Counted from the stretch's first letter, positions 2,517 to 38,415 are shown. The stretch is 38,572 nt of DNA from an uncultured Candidatus Saccharibacteria bacterium (GCA_964363475.1 CAYIII010000004.1:1-38572), one strand, 5' to 3'. The notes: a model not told the origin generated them from the sequence alone. Made by a program: numbers and translations.

Positions 2517-3709
2517 TCTTCTAAAACTTCGGGAATCGCAAAGTCCCCGTCAGAATTCTGATAATTTTCTATAATGGCAATAATAATTCTACCGATAGCC
2601 AGAGCGGTGGCGTTTAACATATGCGCATATCCTCCTTTTTCATACTTACAATTAATACCCCGCGCTTGAAAATCGGTGGTATTGGAACACGAATGGGTCT
2701 CGCGATATTGATTCTGACCGGGAAGCCAAACCTCAATATCATATTGTTTGGCGTCAGTCCAACCCAAATCACCGGTACAAATTTGCATCACCCTGTAACA
2801 CAACCCCAAATCCCGCATTAATTCTTCTTGACAACTTAACAAAAATTGATGTTCTTTTTCTGATTCCTCCGGCTTGGAAAAAGAAAACATCTCCACCTTA
2901 TCAAATTGATGAACTCGTAAAATTCCTTTTGTATCCTTGCCGTAAGAGCCGGCCTCACGCCTAAAACAAGTAGAAAGCCCGACGTACCTTTTGGGCAAAT
3001 CCCTATCTCTTAATGTCTCATCCATATGCAACGGCCCAAGCGTATGTTCCGCGCTGCCCACCAGATATAAATTATCTTTTTCTAAAAAATAACGCTCTTC
3101 TTTTTGGTCGGCGGCTAATCTCCCCATACCGGCAAATACTTCTGGCCTAATCATCACCGGAGGAATAATCGGTGTAAATCCTTTAGCAATCAGTTTACTA
3201 AAAGCAAACCTGACTAACGCTAATTCTAATAGAGCCGCTTTGCCCTTTAAATAACCAAATCTGCTTCCGGAAACCCTAACCGCTCTCTTAACATCAATAA
3301 TGTCTAGATTTTCCGCCAATAATAAATAATCTTTCGGCTTAAAATCAAATGTTGGTTTTACGCCCACCTCCCTTAAGACAACGTTTTCTAATTCGTTTTT
3401 TCCCACTGGAACATCGCTGGCCACGATATTGGGAAAATCGTTTAATAAATCATTTCTTTTTCTTTCCAATTCTAACATTTCAATGTTAAGCGATTTGATT
3501 TTTTCTTTTACCGACTTAGATTCTTCTATCTTCCGTTCTTTGCTTAATACATTTTGTTCAGCCCTATATTTATCCATACTTGTGGTCAGAGAACGCCATT
3601 TCTCATCCAAATCCAAAAATTGGTCAACTAAATTAGAATCCTTATTTCTTTTGATAAGGGATTCTTTAACCAAATCGGAATTTTCACGAATCAATCTAAT
3701 GTCTAACAT
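2513..3709 (-). CDS. serS: Serine--tRNA ligase
   Basis: MLDIRLIREN start, CFRREAGSYGKDTKGILRVHQFDKVEM, ETHSCSN, HMLNAT. Confidence 0.98.
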   Translation of the reverse strand: MLDIRLIRENSDLVKESLIKRNKDSNLVDQFLDLDEKWRSLTTSMDKYRAEQNVLSKERKIEESKSVKEKIKSLNIEMLELERKRNDLLNDFPNIVASDVPVGKNELENVVLREVGVKPTFDFKPKDYLLLAENLDIIDVKRAVRVSGSRFGYLKGKAALLELALVRFAFSKLIAKGFTPIIPPVMIRPEVFAGMGRLAADQKEERYFLEKDNLYLVGSAEHTLGPLHMDETLRDRDLPKRYVGLSTCFRREAGSYGKDTKGILRVHQFDKVEMFSFSKPEESEKEHQFLLSCQEELMRDLGLCYRVMQICTGDLGWTDAKQYDIEVWLPGQNQYRETHSCSNTTDFQARGINCKYEKGGYAHMLNATALAIGRIIIAIIENYQNSDGDFAIPEVLEE

Positions 3710-9234: not shown

Positions 9235-10443
9235 CTAAAACACTTGCACTAGATTGTATATCGGCAAAAGAATTGCCGCAAATAATAAACCCACTAATCC
9301 TCCAATTAAAATCATTAAACTTGGCTGAATTAATTCAACTAAATTATTGACTAAATTATCAACTTCTCTGGTATAAAATTGAGAAATTCTGTTAAACATT
9401 TCCGACAAACGGCCGGTGCTTTCTCCCACCGCCACCATTTGGCTCACTAATGAGGGGAAAAGAAACTCATATTCTTCAAGGGATTGGGATAATAATTGGC
9501 CTTGGCGAATTTTATCAGCCACCTCATGCAAAGCATCCCGATAATTAATGCTGGTAGTGGTATGACCGCTTATTTCTATCGCTTGGGCTATCGGTATGCC
9601 CCCCTTAATTAAAATACTGGTTGCGTCAGCAAAACGGGCCACATAAAATTGCTTAAACAAGTGGCCGATAATCGGTGAACTTAACAGTAATTGGTCGTAA
9701 ACCACCTTTCCTTCGTCGCTTTGAAAATAATCAAAAAGCAAAATAAAAAATATGAGTAAAATAAAAATAATAGCAAACCACCAGTTAGCCAGAAAATTGC
9801 CTATAATCAAAAAAATAGTGGTAATTAAAGGCAAGGACACGTTCGCGTCACGAAAAATCGGCTCAATTTGAGGAAAAACTAAACCCATCAATACGCCTGC
9901 CGTTAATACAAATAAAACTATAACAAAAATTGGATAAATCATGGCATTTCTAACCTTAGAAACCAATATAGTTTCTTTCTCTAAATAATCTGCCAAAAAA
10001 CTCATCGCCTCTTCAATTCTTCCCGTTATTTCAGCGGATTTAATTAAATTAATGTAAAATTCCGAAAAAATATTCGCGTGTCTTTCCAGGGACTGCGACA
10101 ATGAAAGGCCGGAATCAATATCGGTGGAAATTTCAAAAATCGCCTCTCTCAAAACGACATTATGAGTATTCCTGTAAAGACTTTTTAAAGCGTCGTTTAA
10201 AGGAACCGCCGATTCAAGCATTGTGGCCAATTGCCTGGTAAAAACCATCAGGTCAATTCTGCGAACGCGATTAAAAAAAATTAAAAACTTGCCGTACCAA
10301 ATCGGCGCTTCCATTGATTCCATACTCAAGACATACAAATCATGGCCGTTTAAGATATTAACGGCCGCTTCTTTGGTAACCGCCTCCACAAATCCAATTT
10401 GCAGTTCTCCTGTTTTAGTTCTGGCGCTATATTTTAATTTCAT
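9235..10443 (-). CDS. pilC: Type IV pilus inner membrane platform protein PilC (GspF family)
   Basis: FTRQLATMLES, two GspF repeats, MVAVGESTGRL, ILLPIY. Confidence 0.93.
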   Translation of the reverse strand: MKLKYSARTKTGELQIGFVEAVTKEAAVNILNGHDLYVLSMESMEAPIWYGKFLIFFNRVRRIDLMVFTRQLATMLESAVPLNDALKSLYRNTHNVVLREAIFEISTDIDSGLSLSQSLERHANIFSEFYINLIKSAEITGRIEEAMSFLADYLEKETILVSKVRNAMIYPIFVIVLFVLTAGVLMGLVFPQIEPIFRDANVSLPLITTIFLIIGNFLANWWFAIIFILLIFFILLFDYFQSDEGKVVYDQLLLSSPIIGHLFKQFYVARFADATSILIKGGIPIAQAIEISGHTTTSINYRDALHEVADKIRQGQLLSQSLEEYEFLFPSLVSQMVAVGESTGRLSEMFNRISQFYTREVDNLVNNLVELIQPSLMILIGGLVGLLFAAILLPIYNLVQVF

Positions 10444-18410: not shown

Positions 18411-18590
18411 TGGCGGTGGGGGTGAGCGCTATCGCTACTCGAACAATTTGGAAACCCTCGGTTTCCAACGGTCGCTTCGCGACCTGCCTTCCTACACGGG
18501 AAACTCCCGTTTCCCGACCCTTTCCCGTTCGAATCTCACCCTCAACAGCAGAAACAAAACAGGGTCTTATGCCCTGTTTTGTTTCTGATG
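18411..18590 (-). mobile_element. ~180-bp structured element at tRNA-Ser 3' end
   Basis: 14-bp duplicate of tRNA 3' end with CCA (18411-18426), antisense T-arm copy (18527-18541), 16-bp hairpin (18549-18587), GC hairpins shared with 28662-28845. Confidence 0.7.
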
Positions 18591-18676
18591 CGGTGGGGGT
18601 GAGATTCGAACTCACGATGCCTTTTGAGCATAACACTTTTCAAGAGTGCCGCCTTAATCCTCTCGGCCACCCCACC
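18591..18676 (-). tRNA. tRNA-Ser(TGA)
   Basis: GGTGGGG/CCCCACC acceptor, G73, anticodon loop CTTGAAA, long variable arm, GTTCGAATC T-loop; followed by CAT, not CCA. Confidence 0.95.
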
Positions 18677-28618: not shown

Positions 28619-28666
28619 GGTGCCTGCACCGCGAAGCTCATCAATTTATTGATGAGCGAAGTGGTG
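28619..28666 (-). repeat. Mini palindromic insert at the duplicated tRNA-Ala 3' end
   Basis: CACCAC-TTC-GCTCATCAAT-AA-ATTGATGAGC-TTC-GCGGTG-CAGG-CACC. Confidence 0.65.
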
Positions 28667-28845
28667 GACCTACGGGGAGTCTCACTGCTCAGCCGACGTA
28701 CGTCGGCTTGCGCTCTAAAACCTTGCGGTTTTAGTATTTCCACCTTGGAGGGGAAACCTGCGTTTCCCCTCCATCACCACCCCTTGTTCAATTCCCAGGC
28801 CAAGACAAAAATAGCCGTCTTAAATTAGACGGCTATTTTTGTCTG
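28662..28845 (-). mobile_element. ~180-bp structured element at tRNA-Ala 3' end
   Basis: 15-bp duplicate of tRNA 3' end with CCA (28662-28678), antisense T-arm copy (28786-28802), perfect 18-bp hairpin (28803-28844), hairpins shared with 18411-18590. Confidence 0.7.
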
Positions 28846-28916
28846 TGGACCTACGGGGAATTGAACCCCGCCCTCCTCCATGCCATGGAGGCGTAATACC
28901 GATTTACTATAGGCCC
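28846..28916 (-). tRNA. tRNA-Ala(GGC)
   Basis: GGGCCTA/TAGGTCC acceptor with G3:U70, A73, CCTCC-ATGGCAT-GGAGG anticodon arm, GTTCAATTC T-loop. Confidence 0.92.
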
Positions 28917-38369: not shown

Positions 38370-38415
38370 TGGCGGGCTTTGCCCGCCGTAGCTCGCTTCT
38401 GCGAGCGAAGGCGGG
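38370..38415 (-). repeat. Mini palindromic insert duplicating the tRNA-Trp 3' end
   Basis: CCCGCC-TTC-GCTCGC-AGAA-GCGAGC-TAC-GGCGGG-CAAAG-CCCGCCA. Confidence 0.7.

Follow-up and report, generated by a model that had tools for sequence, protein, structure and literature searches.

The stretch of DNA that lies 3' of a tRNA-Ser(UGA) gene in the window analysed here (the whole 38,572-nt sequence CAYIII010000004.1, from an uncultured Candidatus Saccharibacteria bacterium) is one copy of a phylum-wide family of insertion cassettes found in bacteria of the candidate phyla radiation (CPR). These cassettes are ~130-200 nt long and contain no open reading frame (ORF). The interpretation that we favour, and that we regard as probable, is that the cassette is a non-autonomous integrative mini-element that restores its own target. 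There is also a real chance that the mechanism of this undescribed family is new in kind.

The organization of the tRNA-Ser copy is given in Table 1. All the parts that the initial annotation had listed are present on the minus strand: a tRNA without CCA, hairpins, an antisense segment and a second 3' end bearing CCA. The tRNA is followed by CA, not CCA, and we read its last 13-14 nt (the 3' half of the T-stem, the 3' strand of the acceptor and the discriminator) as borne by the cassette. The perfect 16-bp hairpin found next is the terminator-like hairpin of tRNA-Ser and is also cassette-borne. Together, the proximal repeat (X), this hairpin and the antisense segment (antiX) make an imperfect palindrome of ~85 nt. 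Within antiX, 15 nt are an exact antisense of the T-loop and the 3' half of the T-stem (tRNA positions 53-67), while over the remaining 5 nt the antisense, here to the acceptor strand, has diverged. Three hairpins follow, of which P2b (GGTCGC-GAA-GCGACC) is lineage-specific, being common to all the copies seen in genomes of the same family. The 3' junction of the cassette has homologues in other copies that read GTTCGATTT or GTGARAT, and the distal repeat (X') completes the structure. The 14-nt direct repeat has a spacing of 177, as first reported. The claim that no credible ORF is present also held: ORFs across the stretch overlap the tRNA, and related copies differ by hairpin-sized insertions, which argues against coding. 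The 276-nt tRNA-Ser stretch folds far more stably than shuffled sequences (z = -8.0, 0/200 shuffles), and in the minimum-energy folds of both copies in the window the 5' acceptor strand of the tRNA pairs with the distal 3' end, and X with antiX.

Table 1. Cassette features in the window, with the second motif described at the end of the text.
Feature	Position (nt)	Strand	Basis and details
Host tRNA-Ser(UGA)	18591-18676	minus	ARAGORN; Rfam RF00005, 56.4 bits; no encoded CCA
Proximal repeat X (14 nt), same sequence as the distal repeat	18590-18603	minus	Repeat search
Perfect 16-bp hairpin and the T-rich run after it	18549-18587	minus	Inverted repeats; fold; arms 18587-18572 and 18564-18549
antiX, antisense of tRNA positions 53 to ~68	18527-18546	minus	Sequence match; exact 15 nt at 18541-18527
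Purine-rich conserved junction (GGGAAAGGGTC) and hairpin P2	18497-18526	minus	Invariant alignment columns; P2 at 18516-18497, GGGA loop
Conserved junction (GTGTAGGAAGGCA) and extra hairpin P2b	18470-18496	minus	Fold, alignment; P2b at 18484-18470, GAA loop
Hairpin P3, conserved apical AACC-GNNG-GGTT, one covarying base	18448-18468	minus	Inverted repeat
Cassette 3' junction: ATT, T-loop-like GTTCGA, small GC hairpin	18427-18447	minus	Sequence
Distal repeat X' with CCA	18411-18426	minus	Repeat search; direct repeat at 18413-18426 and 18590-18603
Second cassette, tRNA-Ala(GGC)	28662-28916	minus	Repeat/antisense search; R1 42.9 bits
tRNA-Ala(GGC) gene	28846-28916	minus	
X of the tRNA-Ala cassette	28845-28859	minus	
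Hairpin of the tRNA-Ala cassette	28804-28843	minus	
antiX of the tRNA-Ala cassette	28786-28803	minus	
Core of the tRNA-Ala cassette	28711-28796	minus	
X' with CCA of the tRNA-Ala cassette	28662-28678	minus	
Second motif, first place in the window	38387-38409	minus	
Second motif, second place in the window	28632-28660	minus	

The copy that had been noticed behind tRNA-Ala(GGC) in the same window has the same layout as the tRNA-Ser one, built with its own sequences: a 15-nt repeat with a spacing of 181, an antisense to its own T-loop and three hairpins, in a stretch that also folds better than shuffles (z = -9.2). The source genome (506 kb in 29 contigs, 95.6% complete, tmRNA present) contains 31 tRNA genes, and at seven of them we found a downstream antisense and/or duplicate of the 3' end. 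A near-identical core is present at four of these seven loci, and two contigs end within the core. On contig C18, the last 14 nt of tRNA-Ala(cgc) (2937-3008) are repeated beyond a stretch of N, so that this is probably another cassette. A different arrangement was observed on contig C7 (~9705-9950, copy L002) behind tRNA-Ser(cga), where a circularly permuted core, inverted and inside a 12-bp stem, occupies the place of the terminator. The CCA-bearing 3' fragment downstream of it matches tRNA-Ser(gct) and not the adjoining tRNA. This copy might stem from two cassettes having been rearranged with each other, or else be a chimera of the assembly.

To describe the spread of the family, 15 copies of the core were used to build a covariance model, R1. 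Of the 151 genomes in the order, 62 gave R1 matches, at most 16 in any one genome, and so did 12 of 150 further genomes from the phylum. The spread across the order is patchy, with 0/7 genomes positive in several families and 7/7 in others. A scan for the exact pattern, using one genome per species, yielded at least 114 stretches, and most of the titles shown were Patescibacteria-type metagenome-assembled genomes, with a few from other groups. The search for further copies that the initial annotation had called for thus returned hundreds, R1 matching across order and phylum. No family in Rfam 15 matches the cassette: at the gathering score only tRNAs were recovered, and at E values up to 10 only hairpin look-alikes, so that the elements do not fall into a family already described there. 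Among viral contigs there was no real match, the single one obtained being a chance match in a GC-rich coding context, and blastn found no match to the cassette in phage records. The literature on mobile elements, tRNA and structured RNA in Patescibacteria/CPR, taken without supplements, gave no description of such an element.

We collected 94 distinct copies to analyse their position. The initial annotation had asked whether matches sit at tRNA 3' ends, and most do: for 79 of the 94 copies, a tRNA (76) or tmRNA (3) gene ends within a few tens of bases upstream on the same strand, and the hosts in this set span ~35 anticodons. Among the other 15 copies, two are at the 3' end of rplK and five (at four loci) lie within the 5' end of fusA or lepA, at the codons of the AHID motif and opposite in direction to the gene; the rest of them lie at the edge of a contig or are orphans whose distal repeat resembles a tRNA. 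A circularly permuted copy is found at the 3' end of a thioredoxin-like gene. The protein-coding hosts were identified with Pfam. At each of the non-tRNA targets the cassette has its own matching antisense and duplicate. Without exception, host sequence from the left edge of the duplication is found in antisense before the core, and host sequence is repeated after it. Targeting is hence not confined to tRNA genes. Furthermore, because the copies in the GTPase genes are antisense, orientation follows the target sequence and not transcription.

Where a distal repeat was found, it lies 11-124 nt behind the modelled core, which leaves no room for an integrase ORF; the exception is copy L027, in which it is 870 nt away and was judged to be the end of another tRNA. 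Duplications range from 14 to ~66 nt. The distal repeat is exact in most copies and is often interrupted by extra hairpins, and the CCA of the distal copy is not conserved in other genomes. Several tRNAs are followed by two cassettes in succession (L059, L104 and L112).

The initial annotation had asked whether the antisense segment follows the identity of the host tRNA, and this is the case. For the 71 tRNA-hosted copies, the longest exact match of the antisense averaged 10.1 nt with the own host versus 5.8 nt with other hosts. The distal repeat gave 13.5 versus 5.7 nt, with a modal exact length of 15. The match to the own host exceeded the non-self mean in 65 of the 71 copies, for antisense and distal repeat each, and 0 of 300 host permutations reached the observed means for either segment. 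In 48 copies the T-loop part of the antisense follows the T-loop variant of the host, forming 7.6 of 8 Watson-Crick pairs, a value that is inflated by the filter used to locate it, which demanded an antisense match within two mismatches. The 8 nt before the distal repeat pair less with the antisense (3.6/8). These T-loop-like bases usually do not include the T55-C56 of a real T-loop, and their commonest form, GTGARAT, is a T-loop with TC replaced by GA, which produces with the antisense a helix containing tandem G-A pairs. In one genome (G129; copies L077, L078, L081 and L082), several cassette-bearing tRNAs have a TCCGA T-loop, with C at position 55, in place of TTCGA; the antisense of these cassettes follows the variant and the distal copy has the usual TTCGA.

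Comparison with related genomes gave evidence of insertion. At the 5' end of fusA in genome G122 (copy L089), two tandem identical 190-nt units are located between rpsG and fusA (2.3 copies with 99% matches according to TRF), so that ~380 nt of inserted DNA precede the functional fusA start. Between the duplicated 63-66 nt and the resident copy there are two base differences. In another fusA insertion the duplicates are identical over ~63 nt, and we read the fusA insertions as recent. The interval between fusA and rpsG is uninterrupted in 5/5 relatives from the family of G122. Element-free tRNA-Ser(tga) genes encode CCA in three relatives (G003, copy L043 of G007, and G051); the other G007 copy (L041) has no encoded CCA. 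These encoded CCA ends indicate that the distal, CCA-bearing copy is the displaced resident end, and consequently that the CCA-less end completing the tRNA came with the cassette. Empty sites are present in relatives at both fusA and tRNA-Ser. At rplK and lepA, X and X' have diverged without loss of the reading frame in either, and there is a separate terminator for each of them; divergence between X and X' is expected if one of them came from another lineage.

The cores also carry a signal of spread within genomes. Core identity is 0.778 within genomes versus 0.738 between them, a difference that 0 of 500 label shuffles reached, and the nearest core neighbour is in the same genome for 31 of 67 copies. 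Sharing the same host tRNA adds little (0.754 versus 0.734). This similarity reflects intragenomic spread or homogenization, and gene conversion could be responsible instead of transposition. Nine public sequencing runs contain the stretch, with no RNA run among the holders listed. A search for circular or excised forms gave no X-X' joint in the contigs of four DNA runs, a result that is uninformative since contigs drop rare variants. These contigs break in the repeated core, ending at 18488 and restarting at 18595, and the joints listed in them link different tRNA genes or other places. The contigs of a relative of the same genus also end at tRNA-Ser.

No copy among those examined carries an ORF, and the longer versions encoding a recombinase, a reverse transcriptase (RT) or a nuclease that had been suggested as a check did not appear among them. 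The source genome gave no match for RVT_1, Phage_integrase (PF00589) or Resolvase, nor for the IS110 DEDD domain (PF01548), the TnpB zinc ribbon (PF07282) or Y1_Tnp (PF01797). One Xer-like tyrosine recombinase is encoded in 143 of the 151 genomes of the order, carriers or not, and its presence therefore does not discriminate between them. All seven other genomes of the same family have the Xer-like gene, although the source genome has no tyrosine recombinase match; its gene may lie in an assembly gap. An RT, which a retroelement inserting by target-primed reverse transcription would need, was found in 37 of the 62 carriers versus 37 of the 89 non-carriers, by a hand count over related genomes that are not independent, and in 13 of the 15 genomes with at least seven cassette copies (also by hand count). 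The three RTs inspected are 312-361 aa long and score below every NCBIfam cut-off. By the listed coordinates, these three are not adjacent to the listed cassette copies, and the co-occurrence may only reflect genomes that are rich in mobile elements.

The core, of ~80 nt with only three or four hairpins, is predicted to be a four-way junction made of P2, P3, variable hairpins and purine-rich junctions. In 99 distinct matches aligned to the model, 98.8% of the helix cells are paired and 14 of 17 pairs show compensatory changes (P2: 99.3% paired, 7 of 9 pairs; P3: 98.2% paired, 7 of 8 pairs), in an alignment that was fitted to the model and so favours the structure. None of 500 shuffles reached any of the covariation measures, and sliding the partners abolished the signal. 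GNRA-like loops are present. G-U pairs outnumber A-C pairs 18 to 5, which points to the tRNA-sense strand. A closing helix, P1, formed by antiX and X', is present in the minimum-energy fold of 30 of 48 copies versus 43 of 134 with swapped tails. The variable hairpins are inserted at fixed points of the core. In the longest variants (L083 and L084, both in G129), P3 carries an insertion of ~290 nt, GC-rich and non-coding, with 19-nt inverted repeats at its bounds; it has the look of an expansion segment or of a structured element nested within the cassette. In circularly permuted copies P2 is opened, and a short linker connects the two ends that would otherwise abut the helix of host-derived sequence; the order of the blocks was swapped and the same helices were kept in the four permuted copies examined (4/4), in which individual matches are short. 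Two other identities were considered for the core. RNase P RNA was ruled out, as the genome has its RNase P RNA elsewhere, and a G-quadruplex or pseudoknot in the purine-rich junctions, judged by eye, was set aside because the four G-tracts are not kept in permuted copies.

The minimal versions of the variable hairpins are very often GCGAAGC, for instance at 18484-18470 in the window. The GCGAAGC mini-hairpin, with its GAA triloop, is unusually stable as single-stranded DNA. These hairpins may give a weak hint of a role for a single-stranded DNA form of the cassette.

In the integrative mini-element that we propose, the cassette comprises three parts. The first replaces the part of the target that lies beyond the insertion point (here tRNA positions ~61-73, with trailer and terminator hairpin), the second is antiX, an antisense of 10-20 nt to target sequence on both sides of the insertion boundary, and the third is the conserved four-way-junction core. 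The cassette is located at the boundary of T-loop and T-stem, with the cassette-borne 3' end completing the gene and the resident 3' end (here with CCA) displaced ~180 nt downstream. Integration would proceed by recombination inside the repeated segment. Folded in a single strand, the hairpin made of X, terminator and antiX could mimic the duplex target; alternatively, antiX could be a guide that locates T-loop-like sequences. Function would be supplied in trans by the Xer-like recombinase, by homologous recombination after DNA uptake or by another factor. Opening a folded circle within the target copy would generate exactly the order of parts that is observed. Since the targets are highly conserved, the repeat and the gene body might serve as homology arms and allow spread between lineages. 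A miniature tRNA-targeting element with its own target-matching segment had been proposed in the initial annotation. This fits the data, except that targets other than tRNA genes are used too, and a guide-like nature of antiX, also suggested there, may be entertained. No step in the mechanism proposed here accounts for how a cassette that reaches a different type of target gains the antisense and the repeat that match it.

Several known elements share parts of this scheme. CTX-phi and integrative mobile elements exploiting Xer (IMEX) integrate via the host XerCD through a folded single-stranded attP. Like them, the cassette has no recombinase of its own and contains an inverted pair of target-like segments that can fold into a mimic of the duplex target, and its integrated order is that of a folded circle opened within the target copy. 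In contrast, IMEX are kilobases long, encode genes and integrate at dif, whereas the cassette is found at tRNA T-loops and similar sequences. Miniature inverted-repeat elements (MITEs) are bounded by terminal inverted repeats of their own, and the target duplication that they cause is short and constant in length. The cassette resembles MITEs, as well as the cis-mobilisable elements (CIMEs) that derive from integrative elements, in being small, non-autonomous, multi-copy, structured and gene-less. Unlike in MITEs, its inverted repeat is derived from the host and differs at each site, and its duplication is of variable length (14 to ~66 nt). Behind E. coli tyrT there are 178-bp direct repeats, each with the 3' end of the tRNA, that form a local tandem array. 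They are similar in being direct repeats of ~180 bp behind a tRNA gene that contain its 3' end, but they are restricted to one locus and are not known to have an antisense or a core common to many tRNAs and genomes.

An unlikely alternative is that the cassette is a structured non-coding RNA of benefit to the host, co-transcribed with the tRNA by read-through and closed by the antiX-X' helix, which would copy the T-arm. Its roles could be those of a processing or termination module or of a tRNA-like decoy, the repeats being possible by-products of module duplication. Such an RNA would account for the strong covariation of P2 and P3 and the phylum-wide conservation of the junctions, for the excess of G-U pairs on the sense strand, for hairpins inserted at fixed permissive points, for the helices kept in all four permuted versions examined and for the preference of P1 for its own tails. 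It is also favoured by the GTGARAT junction, which turns T-loop pairing into a helix with tandem G-A pairs, and by the retention of at least seven copies in a 506-kb genome without a mobility-enzyme match. However, no promoter-like site is found between the tRNA and the cassette, whereas a terminator-like hairpin is. Copies that lie antisense within GTPase 5' ends, as well as those at rplK, speak against it too, as do the patchy distribution between families, the empty sites in relatives and the existence of tandem arrays. Moreover, an RNA function gives the closing helix no reason to copy the host.

The RNA-like conservation of the core (covariation, loops and G-U excess) is nevertheless something that a passive DNA cassette does not explain. 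Together with the permuted forms, it keeps alive both the functional RNA and a bolder version of the element. Here the core would be an active structured RNA or single-stranded DNA that uses the antisense as a programmable guide and directs its own insertion at T-loop-like sequences in highly conserved genes, a proposal that we consider doubtful at present. The cassette would then be a protein-free, guide-bearing homing element of ~180 nt that relies on general host enzymes only and that tolerates permutation as small ribozymes do. The bridge RNA of IS110 and the omega RNAs of TnpB/IscB work with an encoded recombinase or nuclease and are not known to leave a long duplication. As in these systems, a structured RNA of ~150-200 nt would be flanked by segments matching the insertion site; in the cassette, however, the host-matching segments are complementary to each other, and the genome has no IS110 or TnpB match.

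The integrative mini-element that we favour also has to be set against the genomic islands found at tRNA genes. The Islander report describes islands in tRNA/tmRNA genes that regenerate their target and leave a displaced fragment (PMC4383910), and partial tRNA duplication upon integration is described in a second source (PMC9897764). The cassette resembles these islands in that the 3' part of the gene is split off, a replacement 3' end is carried, the resident fragment remains as a direct repeat and the repeated block starts in the T-loop. It differs from them in its size (130-200 nt and not kilobases), in having neither integrase nor other gene, in its covarying hairpin core and internal target antisense, in its presence also at rplK and GTPase genes, and in that one core family is associated with dozens of targets. 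The T-loop is one of the sublocation classes of tyrosine-integrase islands. With respect to membership of this class, the repeats are present in the window (14 nt for Ser, 15 nt for Ala) and the integrase is absent.

Cassettes might, instead of being elements in their own right, be scars or deletion derivatives of integrase islands or prophages that had entered tRNA T-loops, with attL and attR joined and the core as an arm-type binding region. The classical layout of regenerated target and displaced fragment at tRNA/tmRNA genes, the start of the identity block in the T-loop and its modal exact length of 15 nt are what such scars would leave, yet we hold this origin to be improbable. Indeed, no integrase or island gene is present at any of the ~94 copies, and all units fall within a uniform length of 130-200 nt. 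Arms that merely bind protein would have no need of covarying helices, and dozens of target sequences, all different, would have to be recognized by a single integrase. Viral and phage collections contain no similar sequence, and att sites have no counterpart of the internal antisense.

The last proposal is a T-loop intron or processing switch that joins the tRNA body to the distal CCA end, or in which antiX toggles between the two copies to regulate tRNA output. It is echoed in the window-copy folds and in an X-loop-antiX...X' order reminiscent of group I P1/P10 logic, where an antisense just inside the element likewise pairs with the upstream sequence and with the start of the downstream copy. 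This suggestion of the initial annotation is nevertheless very hard to sustain, as the tRNA is complete and the host gene intact without splicing, the target is duplicated, no group I core or other intron family matches (Rfam), other genomes do not conserve the distal CCA, many distal copies contain intervening hairpins or are devoid of T55-C56, and splicing could not remove the antisense copies from the mRNAs of protein genes.

If the target-restoring reading holds, these cassettes are the smallest target-restoring integrative elements known to us, a tenth the size of any tRNA-gene island and gene-less, and they abound in bacteria with the most reduced genomes known. This raises the question of how a 180-nt cassette finds T-loop-like sequences, duplicates its target and rewrites its antisense for each host. 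Candidate answers are the hijacking of a host recombinase, a parasite of DNA uptake driven by recombination, or a guide-bearing RNA or DNA with an activity of its own. On the practical side, the cassettes break assemblies at tRNA genes, the tRNA 3' fragments that they create are open to misreading by annotation pipelines, and their core provides a new, strongly covarying RNA-like motif for these phyla.

A second motif was observed in the source genome. It consists of TTCGCTC, a short hairpin and GAGCTTCG, followed by a GGCA-rich tail, and it is found in 10 places: the two in the window (Table 1) and others on contigs C6, C7, C8, C10, C12, C14, C17 and C20. In five of the 10 it lies directly 3' of a tRNA end, namely those of tRNA-Trp, of three tRNA-Gly and of the distal tRNA-Ala repeat of the cassette.
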